From: a virus
Taxonomy: Duplodnaviria; Heunggongvirae; Uroviricota; Caudoviricetes
IMG/VR virus record: IMGVR_UViG_2541047798_000006
Strand: one strand, 5' to 3'
DNA length: 41,828 nucleotides
In this document: positions 3,482-35,051 of the stretch, piece by piece
Numbering within the stretch: position 1 is the stretch's first letter
How the letters are laid out: each line of letters opens with the position of its first letter
Translations under genes and position numbers: made by a program
The notes under the pieces: model-generated
Told to the model about the DNA's origin: nothing
Databases searched by the model: none
The model's input: only the letters and a program-made list of their open reading frames with translations

Positions 3482-6400
3482 TCAGCTAATCGTGATGCCT
3501 GTAGTGGCTTTCTTCATCACCACAACCAGCAAATCGCTGATACTTGCTGTGGGATACCAGTTATTTACCAGCCATGCTGACACCGAAAACTCCAGTGTCA
3601 TGTGACCGTGACCGGCAGGCATATCAATAACGCCACTGTAAATCAGCGTATTATCCAGCGCGGTACGGTTATAAATTTCAGCACCGTTTTTCCGCACTAT
3701 CAGACGGCATGAGGAGTAAATATCAGTATGCTCTTTCTCATGTTTAGCGCCGCTGAATGCCACCGCCGGAATAACAATCTGCCGGTCAAACGGCTGATCG
3801 TCATAAACCCTGACGGTAATGGTTCCTGATGGCCACCGCTCCGGTGCACGGGAGTCCCGGGGGAAAGCTTTGCCCACTGTTTTAACGAGATCGCCTTCAA
3901 TCTGGTTCGCGGACAATTTTCCCAGAACCCGACAGTTCTCGTTAATCGTGACGTTGTTGAGCGTCCCGGAGTTCGCATTCACGTTACCGCTGATATCGGC
4001 ATTTTTCGCCGTCAGCCGCCCGTCCGGTGTCAGGGAAAATGCCGGAGGATTACCGCCGCTGGTAATGGTGGGGGCCGTCAGGCGTTTCAGGAACACTTCA
4101 TTCATGAATATCTGATCGCCCTGACCAACAAACATCGGCTTTGTGTTGCCATTCGCAGGATTAATCATCGCAATCCTGTCTGCTGCCAGCAGCACCTGAC
4201 TCTGCATGCCGTCAGGGGTGTTCTCAATACCGGCACCGATACCCGCAATATAAAGGCGTCCGTCCTGCATCTGCTGCAGCTTCACTGCCCACATGCTGTT
4301 CAGGTTATTATTTGTATCAACCTGAACCTTCTGTATCTGCTGGATCGCTGCACTCTGGTCTTCCAGTTTCTTATTGACGGTCTGTGTTATTTCATTGCTG
4401 ACATCCGTTATGGACGTCCTGATTTCAGTCAGGTCAGGCGCAAGCTGACCGTTATCAATCTGCGTCCACAGCTCCTGAGCCAGATGGGTTTTCCCTATCT
4501 CGCCTTTGAAAAAATCCAGATAGCCTGATGCATCATCACTCGGCTGACCGACAGCCTCCACGAATGCCGATTTGCCAACGGTGTTCACACTGCGAACGTA
4601 AAAATAATAATCATGGCCCGGTTTGATATTGATACTGGCGGCTATCCAGTACAGTGCCGTACCAAGATAACGCGCGCTGGTTTCAACCTGCCTGATATCC
4701 GCAATCCGTTTTTCCGAGAACCAGAACTCAAACTGTACCGTCGGATCATAAACCGCAAGATGCGGCGTGGCGGTTATCTGAAAATAGCCCGGCGTCAGCT
4801 CAATCCGCGACGGTGCTGCCGGTGCGGCAATCCGGAATGATACCGACGCCGGATCACCCTGCTGCCCCCAGGCATTTACCGCCCTGACTGTCAGCCTGTA
4901 GTTTCCCAGCGCCAGTTGCCTGAAGCGGTATGTGGTTTCCGTCGTCCGGGCCGTGCTGACCAGCCGCTCACTGCCGTCATCCGCTGCCACGGTCAGGCGA
5001 AGCATAAAGCTCACCCCCTTCACCACCTTCGGCGTATCCCAGCGCGCCAGCACCTGGTATTCCCCGCTGTCTGCGGTGACTTCTGCGGTCAGGTGCTGCA
5101 CTGCTGGCGGCGTGACACCGTTCACCGTTCCGCTCTGGTCGCCGTCAAAGTGCGCCCCGTTATCCACGATGGCTTCTTTCTCCGGCACATGCTGCACGGC
5201 AGTGATGGCATACGTGCCGTCATCGTTCTCACGGATACTCACACAGCGGAACAGGCGCTGGCGCAGCGTCGGCAGCTTCAGCCCCCATACGCTGTATTCG
5301 GCAACACCGTCAGGAACACGGCTCACTTTTACCTTCACGCCGTCGGTGACGGACTGAACCTCCACGCTGACCGGATTGCCACTTCCGTCAACCAGGCTTA
5401 TCAGCGTGGTACCGGAGGATGGCAGCGTGATTTCACGGTCGAGCGTCAGTGTCCGCGTCTGGCTGTTCACCGCCAGCACGCGCCCGCCGATGCTGATACC
5501 CGCATAGTCATCATCACAGATTTCAATGACATCGCCCGGTACATGGCGAAGCCCTTCTGCACCCACGCTGAAGTCCACGGTCTGCGTTTCCAGCAGCTCC
5601 GTTTTAATCAGCCACAGCCCGGCGCGGTGTGCCTGCCCCCGGCTGGTACAGCCAAAGGCATCCATCTTCGTGACGTTACGACCGTAACGGAGAATGGCCT
5701 GCGTATCTTCAACAAGCTCTGTCGCCGTCTCCCAGCCGTTATTCGGGTCAATCCAGTTCACCTCAACGGCATTATGGCGGTCCTTCAGGGCGCTGAAGCT
5801 GTAGCGGAACGGCGCGCCATCATCCGGCATCACCACATTACTGCGGTTATAGGTCCACACCTTATCCGACGGTCGGTCCTGCACGAACGTCAGCGTCTGC
5901 CCGTTCCATACCGGCATACAGCGCATCGCCGAGCAGAAATCACTGAGAACATCCCACGCCTTACGCTGTGTGGTCAGGTAGGCATTACAGGTGATGCGCG
6001 GCTCCGTGCCACCAAAGCCATCCGGCACTGACTGATCGCAATACTGGCCGATGACATACAGCGCCCATTTGTCCACATCCGCCGCACCAAGACGTTTCCC
6101 CATGCCGTAGCGCGGGTGGGTCAGCATATCCCACAGACACCAGGCCATGTTGTTGCTGTATGCCGGTTTAAACGTCCCGTCCCAGATACCGCTGTATTGC
6201 CGCGTCTGCGGGTTATAGTTCGATGGCACCTGCAGAATGCGCCCGCGAAGATGATAATTACGGCTCACCTGCTGGCTGCCGAACTGTTCCGAGTCCACCT
6301 GCACGCCGACCAGTGCCGTGTTCGGGTAGCACTGTTTCACATCGATGATTTCAGTGTATGACGACCAGAGCGTTTTGTTCTGCAGCTGGTCTGTGGTGCT

Positions 6401-30846: not shown

Positions 30847-30878
30847 AAAATAAAAACAAAAACCCGCCGAAGCGGGTT
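30847..30878 (-). terminator. intrinsic terminator at hok mRNA 3' end
   Basis: - strand aacccgcttcggcgggtttttgtttttatttt. Confidence 0.65.
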
Positions 30879-30917
30879 AAGTGCGGGTGCGTTGAGGATA
30901 CCTGCCACATCAGAGGT

Positions 30918-30939
30918 GGCGAGGGATTTCTCCCTCGCC
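30918..30939 (-). other. 9-bp perfect hairpin just after hok stop (hok mRNA 3' structure)
   Basis: ggcgaggga-tttc-tccctcgcc. Confidence 0.6.
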
Positions 30940-30946
30940 GGGTCTC

Positions 30947-31102
30947 TTACTCCTCAGGTTCGTAAGCTGTGAAGACAGCGACCTCCGTCTGGCCGGTTCG
31001 GATTCGTACCTCGCAGAGGTCTTTCCTCGTTACCAGTGCCGTCACTATGACGGTTAAACAGATGACGATCAGGGCGATTAACATCGCCTTTTGCTGCTTC
31101 AT
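30947..31102 (-). CDS. hok: Hok-family type I toxin (HokD/RelF-like)
   Basis: 51 aa MKQQKAMLIALIVICLTVIVTALVTRKDLCEVRIRTGQTEVAVFTAYEPEE. Confidence 0.85.
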   Translation of the reverse strand: MKQQKAMLIALIVICLTVIVTALVTRKDLCEVRIRTGQTEVAVFTAYEPEE

Positions 31103-31650
31103 AGCCTGCTTCTCCTTGCCTTTCGGCACGTAAGAGGCTAACCTACATGTGTCTAGCATGAAATTGGCCTCAGATTAATGTTAAGCGTCTTGCAGGACGC
31201 GTAATGTTAACTGGGGCTTTTCTCTATCTGCCGTTGGTGTTATGCCCGAGGCAGATAGCCTCAAGCACCCGCAGCCATTCTACTTAACTACCGTTACCTC
31301 GCCAATGTGAAATCAGTCAGAAAGGCGATCCATAAGAACAATAGCAAGACAATAAATCGCCATTACAGCCGTAATAGCCAGCGCACATTTGAGAACCAGC
31401 ACCACAACCTCCTGTATTGGACGTACACCAGTCCTGATGAATATGAGGCTGTCTCGTCAGTGATTCAATACAACTATTGGGTATAGTTTCTCTGATTTTT
31501 TCTGTGGAAATGGGGCTCAACCACTAGTCATTTAATACGCAAAGTCCGATACAAGCTAACCTTCTAGTCCGCTTTGAGCGAAAAGCGGACGTTGGAAGTT
31601 TAAAACTCGCGAACTACTCAGCGTCCATTGATGCGTATTGTGTAACGTGA

Positions 31651-32295
31651 TTAACCACAGATGATATTGAAACGTTCTCCGGAAATCTTGACCATAATGT
31701 CAGACAGTTCGCTGACGGCATGGGCTTCAGATGATCCCAGAGCGTCAGGCTGAACAGCTATTACCGAAGCTCCACTTGCCAGCCCTGCTTTTATACCCGC
31801 AGATGCATCCTCAAATACCACGCATTCACCAGGCTCAAGGCCCAAAGCCAAAGCTGCTTTGATGTAACCCTCGGGACTTGGTTTTCCCGTCATTACATCT
31901 TCTGCACACACCATTACTATGGGTAAGGGGAGATTAGCCGCTTTCATCCTGTTTTCTGCAAGCATTCTGCCTGCAGAAGTGACAAGTGCCCAGCTATCCG
32001 GTGGCAGTTTTGATAAGAGTGCAGCGGCCCCTTTTACTTCAGTAACGCCTTCTGTCATGTTGATTTCAACCTCTTCGAGTGAGGCCGCGATTTTATTGGT
32101 TTTCTCACCTGCACCAATAAAATGCGTCAGTGTATCAATCGTTTGCCGCCCGTGTGCGTAAGCAATCACAGCCTGAGTATCAAGACCGTATTCTGCACAA
32201 AAATCTCTCCAGACGCTTTCCACTACGGCTGTTGAATCAACCAGCGTACCGTCCATATCGAATAAAAAACCCTTAGCGTTGAATATCATTGCCAT
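31651..32295 (-). CDS. HAD-superfamily hydrolase (phosphatase-like)
   Basis: 214 aa, DxDGTL-type motif FDMDGTLVDS near the N-terminus. Confidence 0.8.
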   Translation of the reverse strand: MAMIFNAKGFLFDMDGTLVDSTAVVESVWRDFCAEYGLDTQAVIAYAHGRQTIDTLTHFIGAGEKTNKIAASLEEVEINMTEGVTEVKGAAALLSKLPPDSWALVTSAGRMLAENRMKAANLPLPIVMVCAEDVMTGKPSPEGYIKAALALGLEPGECVVFEDASAGIKAGLASGASVIAVQPDALGSSEAHAVSELSDIMVKISGERFNIICG

Positions 32296-32318
32296 TCCTT
32301 AATGGTTGCAGAAGAAAG

Positions 32319-32957
32319 TTAATCAAACCATGTTTTTTCATCACCTTTCGCTACTCTCAGGCTGACAGCAATCTGCTCAGGCACAATTCTTGAAAGCGAC
32401 AATTCAGGCAGGTCGTTGACATCAAAAAAATCAGCATCGAGTGACTCATGGCTGATTGACAGGCTGCCACCTACTTCTTCACAGAGAAAAATCAGCTTGT
32501 AAACATGCCAGGGTAAAGGCGGATGGCCGTGAAGATTACGATCCCAAACTCCCAATAGTTTAGTCACTCTGACTTTTAATCCGGTTTCTTCTTCGACTTC
32601 TCGACGCACAGCTTCAGAAGGTGTATCTCCAACATCTGCCCATCCGCCAGGAAGACTCCATAATCCATCTGCAGCCTCTTTCACCATCAGAATACGATTA
32701 TTACGCAGGATAAACGCACGCACATCTGTTTTGGGCGTCGCGTAACCCGTTTCCGATACATGAAACAAATCATTGCGGCTAATATCAAACTGCGAACTCA
32801 GCAGTCCAGCGGCAATTTCACGCAAGGCTTCATAGCGTTCCTTGTCAAAGACGTCTTTTGAATAGGTCAGGCCTGACTGCGCGAGGGCCTTTAGTCTCTG
32901 GGCAACAAAAATAAGCTTTTCTTGGGTCAACACTTCAGACATGTTTTTCATCTTCAT
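32319..32957 (-). CDS. NUDIX hydrolase with N-terminal extension
   Basis: 212 aa; Nudix box GGWADVGDTPSEAVRREVEEETGL; 23 nt upstream of the HAD gene on the same strand. Confidence 0.8.
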   Translation of the reverse strand: MKMKNMSEVLTQEKLIFVAQRLKALAQSGLTYSKDVFDKERYEALREIAAGLLSSQFDISRNDLFHVSETGYATPKTDVRAFILRNNRILMVKEAADGLWSLPGGWADVGDTPSEAVRREVEEETGLKVRVTKLLGVWDRNLHGHPPLPWHVYKLIFLCEEVGGSLSISHESLDADFFDVNDLPELSLSRIVPEQIAVSLRVAKGDEKTWFD

Positions 32958-33153
32958 TTATGTATTCAGAGTTCCTGTTAAGGATACTGCTCAATTCAAT
33001 GAAGAATAACAAATGCATCTGGCACCTGCTATGTCCGCTTCTGGCACAAAGCGGACAACCACGCCAGATCTACCCTGTGCCATGAAAAATGAGAATGTCA
33101 ATTCACTCCTGAACTAATGCTTTTTAATCTAGTAACGTCTAAAATACCTAACA

Positions 33154-33555
33154 TTATCCCTGATAAAATGCCAGTATGCGCTGCATAACTTCACTCATCC
33201 GGCACTCGCGACAGATTATGTTTAGGCGACTGTCGTAGCGACGTATTTCTCCATCAGGTAACGACCAGATAAGGTCCGGATCAACCACAGCTGTTTTCTT
33301 CACCTTTGCCCTCGATAGTTTTTTGCGGGCGTTTTGCCAGTCCTTACGCGCCTGTTCAGACGGGAATAACCCGTAGCCGGAGTTGTATACATCGCCACTG
33401 GCTACCAGCTCTCTGGCAAGAACGCTCATCAGATATCTAGTCGCACCTGTTTTAGCTTCCAGTTGCCGTAACGTCTCACGACCGCTCTGGCGCACGAGTT
33501 CCACCACCTGCCCTTTAATTTTTTCCCGCTCTTCTTGTGTAAAAACTTTTGCCAC
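33154..33555 (-). CDS. hypothetical protein (basic, CxxC motif)
   Basis: 133-aa ORF downstream of the replication gene. Confidence 0.45.
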   Translation of the reverse strand: MAKVFTQEEREKIKGQVVELVRQSGRETLRQLEAKTGATRYLMSVLARELVASGDVYNSGYGLFPSEQARKDWQNARKKLSRAKVKKTAVVDPDLIWSLPDGEIRRYDSRLNIICRECRMSEVMQRILAFYQG

Positions 33556-33595
33556 AAGTCCCCCTTAAAATTACCTCATGACCTGAAATCAAAAC

Positions 33596-34561
33596 TTATC
33601 CTCTGAAACCAGGCGGAATTTCTGTATCCGGTTCAGAAATATGATTCACACAACGCTGTACAGGTGAACGTCCCAGGCGGATGACCAGTTCGTCCCATTT
33701 TTCGCGGAGTTTTGACGGGCTCATGATGTTTTTTACCCAGAATGGATCCCGCTGTACCCGACCAAACATTTCGCAAATTTGTCTGTGGCTTCTGCCATCC
33801 AGCATCCGCATTGTGCGCACGTCATTGGCCCAGGCTGTCCAGTTAGGCTCTTTTGGTCGCATGATCTCTCCATCGTCGCTGGCAGCCTGTTCGTAAAGGT
33901 TCACGATCCGCCCCCAAATCCACTGCGCACACGCCAAATCCTCCCTGCTACCCCACTGGCGTTTTTTCACACTAAACACAACCGCGTCGGGGTTCCGGGT
34001 TAAAAAATCCTGTTCAGTCGTCTGCGGGTCCGGTTGCGAAGCTTCCGGACGAAAAGTGTTTTTATTCTCTGTAGTAATCTCTGTTGTATTCTCTGTAAGA
34101 TCATCAGGCCATTTTGACCCGATGACATTGGGTCGTTTTGAACCAATGGAGCGTTTCATTTTGACCTCTTCCATCGTGTCATTTTGACCTGATGGAGCGG
34201 CGCATTTTGAACCGATGGATTCGTTCAATTTGCCACCATCTAAAAGCTCGCTCCCATAGTTGATCGTGTAGAAATTGGTCATATCGCGCTTTGATTTATT
34301 GAGCTTTTCACAACGCAAAAGCCCCTGCGTTTTCAGACTTGCAAACGCGCGTTTTAACGTTGACTCTGACCAGAATGGGAACTGTTCCAGCCATTGTTCC
34401 GTTGTGTTATAAATCCAGCGAACACCATCACATTCCATACCGGAGTTGGTATCTCTCAACCAGTAGTGCAGTTGTTGCAAAACAATGGCTTCGTTTAAGC
34501 CGATTTTCATTGCCAGCTGCGTGTTTATAACCAGTGGGCGTTCAGCAAAAAGAAGACTCAT
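33596..34561 (-). CDS. phage replication protein (replisome organiser N-domain, DnaT-like C-domain)
   Basis: N-terminus ...MKIGLNEAIVLQQLHYWL...; start trimmed to the ATG at 34561. Confidence 0.6.
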   Translation of the reverse strand: MSLLFAERPLVINTQLAMKIGLNEAIVLQQLHYWLRDTNSGMECDGVRWIYNTTEQWLEQFPFWSESTLKRAFASLKTQGLLRCEKLNKSKRDMTNFYTINYGSELLDGGKLNESIGSKCAAPSGQNDTMEEVKMKRSIGSKRPNVIGSKWPDDLTENTTEITTENKNTFRPEASQPDPQTTEQDFLTRNPDAVVFSVKKRQWGSREDLACAQWIWGRIVNLYEQAASDDGEIMRPKEPNWTAWANDVRTMRMLDGRSHRQICEMFGRVQRDPFWVKNIMSPSKLREKWDELVIRLGRSPVQRCVNHISEPDTEIPPGFRG

Positions 34562-35051
34562 AATTCCATCCAGCTTTTTGTTGGTATTGCTGTCGATACG
34601 CAAGCTTGAAAGCAATTGCTTTTTCTATAAGTTCGTCAGTTTCACGATCTACAACGGCAGGATCTGCAAAAAGCAGTCCAGATTCCACCACATCGCCATA
34701 TTCTTTATTTAACCCGGCGATCATGTACGTAATACTTTTTTCACGATACAACCTGAAATCACTAATCCGGATAGCCTCCATAATTGCAGGCACTAGCGCT
34801 GTGAACTTTTCACGCTTATCCCTGGTGTCGATAGCCTTCCAGCGTTCGAATATCTTCACTCGATTAACGCTAAGCGCTCGCTGATCAACCGCGCCACCTT
34901 CATATGTGACACGCTGAACATCGATGTTCGGGCGCTCTTTCAAAGCCCAGAATGCTTCAGTGATTAATATCGTCGCCTGCTCCTGTGTCATTCCTGGTCG
35001 ACATATCCAGGCATCCAGAGCCTCACGAGCCTGTTCAGGAGTGATTTTCAT
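34542..35051 (-). CDS. YdaT-like protein (CII-position regulator)
   Basis: 169 aa; WKAIDTRDKREKFTALVPAIMEAI resembles the YdaT segment W..ET..REK...L.PAI (from memory). Confidence 0.45.
   Translation of the reverse strand: MKITPEQAREALDAWICRPGMTQEQATILITEAFWALKERPNIDVQRVTYEGGAVDQRALSVNRVKIFERWKAIDTRDKREKFTALVPAIMEAIRISDFRLYREKSITYMIAGLNKEYGDVVESGLLFADPAVVDRETDELIEKAIAFKLAYRQQYQQKAGWNYESSFC

Follow-up and report, generated by a model that had tools for sequence, protein, structure and literature searches.

The work of Susskind and Botstein, of Hendrix, and of Clark et al. in 2001 reportedly dealt with modular phage evolution and morons and proposed that short conserved border sequences guide recombination. 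Repetitive extragenic palindromes (REPs) are documented join-points of recombination, and several REP families are targeted by insertion sequence (IS) elements of the IS110 family. Defense systems are swapped very rapidly in the hotspots of phages and satellites; two studies (Rousset 2022, PMC9122126; Moura de Sousa 2026, PMC13586616) mention no hairpins, palindromes, or boundary motifs and state that the mechanism of swapping is unknown. Here we describe a 41,828-nucleotide (nt) stretch of Caudoviricetes DNA (IMG/VR virus record IMGVR_UViG_2541047798_000006; below, "the window" means this whole stretch), which is 100% identical to the chromosome of Escherichia coli AR_0017. It contains a lambdoid prophage in which a NUDIX-HAD operon lies between hok and the replication genes. 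The operon is bracketed by two hairpins with common arms, and sequence comparisons place both ends of its homology to unrelated phage backbones in these hairpins. The cassette consists of the following features.

31566 to 33056, minus strand: the mobile unit (hairpin A, HAD, NUDIX, hairpin B), 99.3% identical to phages P2_4C9 and 10W over exactly these coordinates

31567 to 31590, no strand assigned: type A boundary hairpin at the hok-side (left) end of the cassette, with arms GTCCGCTT(T)/(A)AAGCGGAC and loop core GAGCGA

31651 to 32295, minus strand: HAD-IA phosphatase of 214 amino acids (Pfam HAD_2, 2e-22, 80.5 bits)

32319 to 32957, minus strand: NUDIX hydrolase of 212 amino acids (Pfam PF12535, Nudix_N, and PF00293, NUDIX)

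33033 to 33056, no strand assigned: type B boundary hairpin at the replication-side (right) end of the cassette, with arms GTCCGCTT/AAGCGGAC and loop core TGGCAC

In a megablast comparison with phages, the mobile unit was the only part of the window to match Peduovirus P2_4C9 and phage 10W, in which it lies between the tail fiber assembly gene G and the sheath gene FI, i.e., in the Z/fun slot of P2. Similarly, the match to another P2-type contig (L252; such L numbers are our handles for loci) covered query positions q202-1690, that is, all of the unit from base 2 of hairpin A through the end of hairpin B. The only junction differences between the P2 contexts and the window fall in the outer arms. 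In diverged lambdoid contexts, the 600-nt flanks were 86% to 92% identical, the interior was 99.4% to 99.8% identical, and both hairpins were 100% identical, with the flank differences closest to the cassette located 15 nt outside A and 9 nt outside B. The cassette appears to have spread recently among lambdoid prophages and P2-like phages, since all 12 NUDIX genes of the viral collection encode the same protein sequence.

Two further observations concern the P2 slot. Phage 11W (L002:3001-4341) carries a decayed, pseudogenized NUDIX-HAD cassette with fragments of 70% to 89% identity and still recognizable hairpins, annotated merely as "similar to hypothetical protein"; this copy is notable in that P2 hotspots reportedly hold few defense pseudogenes. 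In addition, P2-type backbones (L001:2990-3001 and 4492-4503; L051; L114) have inverted repeats just outside the hairpins, AATCTGACA before A and TGTCAGATT after B, that extend the potential stem to ~17 bp across the whole cassette.

An earlier note on this DNA had reported two hairpins with the same arms at the ends of the cassette, and rereading the window gave exactly these: hairpin A is GTCCGCTTT-GAGCGA-AAAGCGGAC and hairpin B is GTCCGCTT-CTGGCACA-AAGCGGAC, each with a perfect, GC-rich stem of 8 to 9 bp made by the common arms GTCCGCTT/AAGCGGAC around a spacer of 6 to 8 nt. Hairpin A and the reverse complement of B have the same base at 21 of 24 positions, so that the cassette ends are imperfect inverted repeats. 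Folded as single-stranded DNA, A and B have calculated energies of -9.6 and -9.7 kcal/mol (z = -4.5 and -5.8, respectively). No target-site duplication was seen beside the cassette; the adjoining bases are cta and aac in the window and the inverted pair tctgaca and tgtcaga in P2_4C9.

The pattern GTCCGCTT-N4..12-AAGCGGAC matched only twice in the 41.8-kb window, at the two hairpins, versus no match in 100 dinucleotide shuffles, and a relaxed scan detected no further hairpin copies in the window. Three other GTCCGCTT octamers, two of which (10856 and 11974) lie under long open reading frames (ORFs), are isolated half-sites with no hairpin partner and were taken as chance. Short GC-rich stems are common in intergenic DNA, and the two hairpins might accordingly have arisen by chance or be ordinary terminators unrelated to the cargo. 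We regard the probability of this as close to nil, given that not one shuffle held even two matches, that the same loops occur at hundreds of loci, that the hairpins fit the homology boundaries exactly, and that inspection of both strands found no T-run after either hairpin. The identification as canonical intrinsic terminators was rejected in particular, as in the earlier note: the stems are adequate, but the T-tract is missing and a terminator scan of the window called neither A nor B. The B loop TGGCAC was also considered as part of a sigma-54 promoter, a reading that was dropped because inspection found no -12 element. An Rfam search near the slot returned only sok and weak chance matches and no family for the hairpins.

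The conserved genes on the two sides of the slot are as follows, together with a stem-loop lying just inside hairpin B.

30947 to 31270, minus strand: left backbone with the hok toxin ORF (31159..30947; Pfam HOK_GEF, 3e-23) and the sok antisense RNA (31097-31270; Rfam, 118 bits)

33154 to 34615, minus strand: right backbone with DUF977 (LygF-like; 33555..33154) and an O-like replication gene (34615..33596)

33006 to 33032, minus strand: second, weaker stem-loop with a T-rich tail (terminator-like call; 11 pairs including G-T), directly inside hairpin B and upstream of NUDIX

On the minus strand, the gene order within the slot is NUDIX (32957..32319), a 23-nt spacer, and HAD (32295..31651); the ORFs and the Pfam and Rfam matches thus bear out the NUDIX-HAD operon between the replication genes and hok that had been described before. 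Phage mEp460 annotates the right-backbone genes as LygF and primosomal protein I. The stem-loop at 33006 to 33032 belongs to the mobile unit, falling in the region common with P2_4C9, and may serve as an insulator or terminator. Downstream of hok, a strong intrinsic terminator was found at 30857-30943 on the minus strand (AACCCGC-TTCG-GCGGGTT followed by a T-run, 30878-30861); weak, subthreshold Rfam matches (isrK, 26 bits; rsmX, 22 bits) overlap it and probably represent the terminator itself.

The flanks of the slot matched in ~2,400 of 5,426 complete E. coli genomes. Across E. coli, the left flank alignments end at ~31581-31595 and the right ones start at ~33031-33047 (window positions), i.e., at the hairpins. 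The NUDIX-HAD cargo itself is present in only 19 genomes. No empty lambdoid slot (both flanks within ~700 bp; query without the cassette) was detected in 3,284 E. coli genomes, which agrees with the published finding that the main hotspots of P2 are never empty. Among P2-type phage records, G and FI are adjacent, leaving an empty slot, in 3 of 118 (Yersinia phages P37 and GMS190). The empty G-FI slot of P37 (L280:460-592) contains the pF promoter region and a terminator-like stem and nothing else; it has neither an A or B hairpin nor the TGTCAGATT inverted repeat. Since this one empty record inspected is free of hairpins, these would be dispensable for the backbone and belong to the variable unit.

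Scanning IMG/VR for the arms yielded at least 120 contigs. In those of the enterobacterial type, the 8-nt loops belong mainly to two classes, each with its own conserved hexamer at the core, A (N-GAGCGA-N) and B (N-TGGCAC-N), and the layout A-cargo-B recurs with many different A-to-B spacings, from 565 to 3,489 bp. The cargos bracketed in this way are mostly defense systems: (i) PDC-S39/DUF4209, (ii) adenosine deaminase with SIR2, (iii) GmrSD/NsnA with HEPN, and (iv) DarG (DarTG); further cargos are an OLD-like ATPase, a dCMP deaminase, a GIY-YIG protein, and DUF6650. In phage mEp460, PD-T7-1 is located between the same lambdoid flanks and hairpins, with the cargo on the opposite strand. The NUDIX-HAD slot is therefore variable, lies between conserved phage genes, and is occupied by known defense systems in relatives. 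Three hairpin-bounded cargos may be uncharacterized or variant defense modules, namely, a 143-amino-acid cytidine/dCMP deaminase (L262:1641-2072), an OLD-like AAA_15+TOPRIM protein with a 366-amino-acid partner (L266:5250-7367), and an adenosine deaminase-SIR2 operon (L057:2653-5026).

The backbone positions of such cassettes include, besides hok-DUF977 of lambdoid prophages and G-FI of P2, sites beside the portal gene, the P2 A-type nickase, a Y-family polymerase, and the integrase, as well as sites after tail fiber assembly genes. A and B can face either way with respect to backbone transcription, and cargo occurs on either strand. Phage P2 has Z/fun between a B' hairpin, next to G, and a decayed A' hairpin, next to FI; its tin/old region has no hairpins. 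Tandem cassettes are separated by B-(15-20 nt)-A doublets, exact copies of which were found in 14 contigs; L270 carries at least three successive cassettes, and L263 carries two in the P2 G-FI slot. Even in hairpins with decayed arms, the loop cores are conserved. The earlier suggestion that the hairpins may mark cassette boundaries is thus strongly supported: as a hairpin-bounded unit, the pair recurs in lambdoid prophages and P2-like phages with 99.3% to 99.8% identity in unrelated or diverged backbones, its homology ends in the hairpins, and other cargos lie between the same hairpins.

When one backbone with varied cargo is considered, A is constant at positions 1-15 and B at positions 10-24, and the inner arm and the adjacent loop base follow the cargo. 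Different cargos were also found next to A-type hairpins whose outer flank is the same. The hairpins are most likely REP-like portable joints at which recombination would swap cassettes; both the exchange within the conserved hairpin and the enzyme pathway are what we infer. We put slightly better than even chances on a short-homology double crossover within the hairpin, made by phage annealing recombinases or RecA. The outer arm and loop core would stay with the backbone, and the inner arm would travel with the cargo. The double crossover, of the Red/RecET annealing type or by RecA, would take place between co-resident elements and replace one cargo by another, which would leave the slot almost never empty. 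The hairpins would then act as portable universal adapters, offering a few tens of bases of common homology to otherwise unrelated mobile elements. A 2026 NAR study found transposable elements to be almost absent from P2 hotspots and called the mechanism unresolved. We favor the short-homology crossover because slots change their content and are not emptied, the cassettes bring no recombinase with them, orientation is not constrained, and transposable elements are nearly absent.

Several points weigh against this preference. A length of 24 bases is at the lower limit for recombination by RecA and Red. Homology alone leaves unexplained (i) the palindromic form of the joints, (ii) the conservation of two loop cores despite arm decay, and (iii) the conservation of the arms and of B-like loops in Alphaproteobacteria and Xanthomonadales; taken together, they suggest that a protein recognizes the joints. 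The common 15 nt are invariant and for this reason do not reveal where the crossover falls. Covariation between the arms is nearly absent (2 compensatory pairs among ~50 distinct hairpins) and too sparse to demonstrate folding. Finally, B-spacer-A doublets with unrelated spacers are not products of simple replacement.

The hairpins could instead be true site-specific recombination sites, similar to attC or pdif, which a host or phage enzyme would cut at a fixed position, perhaps on an extruded or single-stranded form, releasing circular cassettes that would enter other hairpins. Arms of 8 to 9 bp around a 6- to 8-nt spacer do resemble the core site of a recombinase. The loop cores GAGCGA and TGGCAC are invariant and their neighboring bases variable, the breakpoints are sharp and symmetric, and the palindrome is conserved with a sharp consensus across Proteobacteria. 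The tandem arrays, and a unit with a single NUDIX gene between two B' hairpins of the same orientation (see below), would also fit. An IS110-family element targets the hairpin, and a parallel is found in the IS1111-attC elements, which target attC. However, no recombinase was seen among the annotated cassette genes, the lambdoid slot is never empty, and the spacers of A and B differ, which is unusual for the partner sites of a tyrosine recombinase. Cargo lies in either orientation, and the hairpins have no fixed orientation relative to the backbone. Moreover, no collapsed A-B site was present in 2.9 million viral contigs, and no hybrid A/B loop was present among 137 hairpins; a crossover at the central GC dinucleotide, of which these would be the products, was rejected for this reason. 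We therefore consider site-specific exchange rather unlikely and retain the short-homology crossover.

The hairpins behave differently in different hosts. In E. coli, B-type hairpins occur in 3,588 of the 5,426 genomes (median of 1 copy, maximum of 7) and A-type hairpins occur in 2,563 (median of 1, maximum of 5); all of them lie in prophages or on plasmids. When one genome per species was scanned, the palindrome proved to be abundant in Alphaproteobacteria (Pseudolabrys, Xanthobacteraceae, Hyphomicrobiales, Sphingomonas, and Rhizobium) and Xanthomonadales, with the sharp consensus AT-GTCCGCTT-WTGACCCA-AAGCGGAC-AT. Contigs of Pseudolabrys, Xanthobacteraceae, and Hyphomicrobiales (L200, L139, L178, L235, and L153; e.g., L200:104-7847) have clusters of two to three hairpins between almost every gene, with the loops TGGGTCAA, TACCCCCGA, and TGGGCCAA, spacers of ~21 nt, and up to 17 hairpins per 8 kb. 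Ordinary single genes are separated in this way (P-type ATPase, ABC binding protein, glyoxalase, DoxX, and others). To judge by this arrangement, the alphaproteobacterial clusters behave like REPs and bacterial interspersed mosaic elements (BIMEs). An Rfam search of the multicopy alphaproteobacterial loci found no matching family. The concern raised in the earlier note that the hairpins might be a generic genome-wide repeat thus does not hold for E. coli, where they are scarce, and does hold in the sense that they are generic to many cassettes and form a dense intergenic repeat in Alphaproteobacteria.

A B hairpin is also found just upstream of relB in the relBE(-hokD) module. It is intact on IncHI2/IncF plasmids (L279:6785-6808); in the Qin prophage of K-12 RP437 (L259:3503-3526), a decayed B hairpin, GGCTGCTC-CTGGCACA-AAGCGGAC, is annotated inside "ydfV" upstream of relBE-hokD. 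The relB-proximal 46 nt are 100% identical between plasmid and K-12.

The alphaproteobacterial clusters, lying between ordinary genes as REPs and BIMEs do, would suit another explanation, namely, that the hairpins are RNA-level or transcriptional elements of each unit (REP-like stabilizers of 3' ends or insulators) and that the breakpoints coincide with them through selection for intact units. In agreement with this, the stems are stable, the hairpins are located outside ORFs at gene ends, a second terminator-like stem adjoins hairpin B, and on the A-to-B strand G.T mismatches outnumber A.C mismatches by 32 to 16. Such elements would not account for homology that ends within the hairpin instead of at variable distances, nor for the segregation of outer and inner arms with backbone and cargo. 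The same hairpin types also adjoin cargo on either strand and can themselves run with or against backbone transcription, there is no U-tract, and Rfam gave no match. We think this explanation improbable, and the reading of the hairpins as portable joints for recombination is kept.

Plasmids extend the range of the hairpins. A NUDIX-only unit (84% identical protein) was identified on a plasmid-like metagenomic contig (L273, 3889-4769; also L274) between GST and LysR genes, bounded by the two same-orientation B' hairpins mentioned above. Homology to the window includes the hairpin and the spacer between hairpin and gene and does not extend beyond the hairpin. The neighboring LysR-SDR-DUF1471 segment, bounded by B' and A', is 93% to 99% identical on large plasmids of Klebsiella, Leclercia, and E. 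coli; these matches end at the hairpins, and the cargo is not a defense system.

On Klebsiella pneumoniae plasmid pLH13-d-A (L278:5489-7010), an ISEsa2-like element of the IS110 family splits a B' hairpin as GTCCGCTT-TGTGCCAG^IS^AAGCGGAC; this hairpin is identical to the reverse complement of hairpin B. On a Citrobacter farmeri IncHI2 plasmid (L279:3002-4519), an A hairpin is interrupted by ISEsa2 at the corresponding point; in both cases, the element separates the loop from the right arm. Alignments of IS copies that are merely 83% identical, found on many plasmids, run exactly from hairpin edge to hairpin edge. Given these precise splits and edge-to-edge alignments, the hairpin is a specific target of the ISEsa2-type IS110 lineage; we found nothing in the literature on the target choice of ISEsa2. 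Such elements might themselves mobilize the DNA between two occupied hairpins, with precise excision leaving a cassette with hybrid hairpins, and the predicted products (outer arm from the target and inner arm from the donor) do resemble the observed pattern. ISEsa2-type elements were, however, detected in only 28 of the 5,426 E. coli genomes, mostly on plasmids, which is too rare for a main mobilizer, and none was seen in the phage loci examined; the near absence of transposable elements from P2 hotspots also speaks against them. In addition, the inferred junction and the point of IS insertion lie one base apart, and cassette ends of different loop types (A and B) would need inverted IS copies, which are unable to co-excise. 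Mobilization by these elements is therefore very unlikely, and homologous exchange at the hairpins remains our preferred reading.

The cargo enzymes were compared with known families. The NUDIX protein scored 68.4 bits in Pfam (gathering cutoff, 21.1) and has the REx2EE catalytic core of the Nudix box (...GGWADVGDTPSEAVRREVEEETGL...), with D in place of the first Nudix-box glutamate, where the aligned PDB entry 3Q1P has Y. It matched 3Q1P, which we take to be the CDP-choline pyrophosphatase of Bacillus cereus, over its full length including the N-terminal domain (7e-50) and the ADP-ribose pyrophosphatase 3O8S (4e-42); all NCBIfam equivalogs scored far below their cutoffs. In PADLOC, it matched only the candidate PDC-S07, weakly (6.6e-10) and over the generic NUDIX fold. 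The HAD protein has motif I as FDMDGT (DxDGT type) and resembles the glycerol-3-phosphatase 2QLT (2e-22) as well as enzymes of the beta-PGM family; PADLOC gave no match. Its best equivalog, NF008610 (YfbT/HxpA sugar phosphatase), scored 188 bits against a cutoff of 282, and HAD is for this reason regarded as a YfbT-like family member and not a housekeeping orthologue. Chromosomal NUDIX homologues of 66% to 74% identity (Cedecea, Leclercia, Pseudescherichia, and Pantoea) are solitary and free of hairpins, so that the cargo NUDIX looks like a captured housekeeping-type enzyme; closer relatives (84% identical) are metagenomic. The possibility, considered in the earlier note, that both enzymes are housekeeping orthologues thus finds some support for NUDIX and none for HAD, a paralogue below the equivalog cutoff. 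The pairing with HAD was not seen at the chromosomal NUDIX homologues and appears to be specific to the cassette.

The predicted chemistry is probably a two-step reaction in which NUDIX would split a nucleoside-diphosphate-X into nucleoside monophosphate and X-phosphate and HAD would then release X and phosphate. The most economical candidate substrate would be a nucleoside-diphosphate-alcohol or -sugar. The pair may serve defense, counterdefense, or metabolism; given the company that it keeps in the slots, a role in phage conflict is plausible. For the hydrolysis of immune signals, a speculative role proposed in the earlier note, the comparisons gave no direct support. We found no report of a NUDIX+HAD defense system in the literature; NARP3 was considered as a related system and proved to be unrelated.

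A 24-nt palindrome at the breakpoints is a concrete, testable handle on the rapid turnover of defense systems; it predicts where cassettes break and join, serves as a sequence tag for new cargo, including uncharacterized cargo such as NUDIX-HAD, and connects the turnover of hotspots with REP-like repeats. Should there be a dedicated enzyme, this would be a new cassette exchange system; otherwise, the hairpins would be natural universal homology arms, explaining exchange between elements otherwise devoid of homology. We also entertain, as a tentative and rather unlikely idea, that the GTCCGCTT-N8-AAGCGGAC palindromes are att-like sites of an unrecognized, integron-independent cassette system of phages and conjugative plasmids, directed by an enzyme or by structure and REP-like in origin or identity, with NUDIX-HAD as a new defense or counterdefense module. 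Single genes and small operons for defense, toxin-antitoxin, and metabolic functions would then be mobile among lambdoid phages, P2-like phages, and conjugative plasmids. We found no description of a boundary motif in recent hotspot papers. Border sequences of a related kind may have been described by Nilsson 2004 (MBE 21:1); papers citing that study and Odegrip 2006 contained no boundary details, and a literature string search for the arms returned primer coincidences only.

Among known systems, the P2 Z/fun and lambdoid defense hotspots are the same loci as those described here: the P2_4C9 cassette lies between G and FI, the cargos include known defense systems, and the slots are never empty. 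As a lower-GC accessory transcription unit (GC content of 0.459 versus 0.515 for the window) between functional modules of a lambdoid prophage, the NUDIX-HAD unit resembles a moron. It differs from morons and phage linkers in that its borders are a defined palindrome family common to lambdoid phages, P2-like phages, and plasmids; no canonical promoter/terminator pair of the moron type was detected at the unit. Transposons with terminal inverted repeats and miniature inverted-repeat transposable elements (MITEs) also have ends like these 24-nt near-inverted repeats, but no direct duplication is present here. In contrast to IS200/IS605 elements or PATEs, homology stops at the foot of the hairpin or inside it and does not extend beyond, and the cassettes contain no transposase.

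Integron cassettes are similar in being promoter-poor units of one or a few genes with palindromic bounding sites, tandem arrays, frequent defense genes, and targeting by IS110/IS1111-family elements. However, the hairpins lack the RYYYAAC/GTTRRRY core sites and are perfect stems of 24 nt, whereas attC sites are imperfect, 57 to 141 nt long, and have extrahelical bases. The hairpin cassettes also have two sites of two loop types and free cargo orientation, and they lie at several positions between phage structural or replication genes with no attI platform (intI was not specifically searched for). An identity with attC was rejected on the core sites, the length, and the lack of a uniform orientation. 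The pdif modules of Acinetobacter plasmids similarly occur on unrelated replicons, have short inverted-repeat sites with a 6- to 8-nt center at which homology ends, and carry toxin-antitoxin and resistance-type cargo, to which the relBE and LysR-SDR hairpin modules are comparable. The hairpins differ in length (24 nt and not 28 nt) from these sites, Xer sites being composed of 11-nt XerC and XerD arms around a 6-nt center. The arms GTCCGCTTT/AAAGCGGAC have no similarity to the E. coli dif sequence, GGTGCGCATAA/TTATGTTAAAT, and we found no evidence of Xer involvement.

The hairpins differ from E. coli REPs in having a sequence unrelated to the REP consensus, in delimiting horizontally exchanged cassettes, and in their low E. 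coli copy number, restricted to prophages and plasmids. No RAYT (TnpA_REP) transposase was present among the annotated ORFs, no search having been aimed at RAYT. The likeness to REPs and BIMEs lies in the short intergenic palindromes of 24 to 30 nt, in the clusters of two to three units with different loop types, in the high copy number in Pseudolabrys, Xanthobacteraceae, and Hyphomicrobiales, in the alternation within alphaproteobacterial doublets and triplets and within the B-A doublets of phages, and in the targeting by an IS110-family element. The hairpins thus work like cassette boundaries, as attC and pdif do, and look like REPs.

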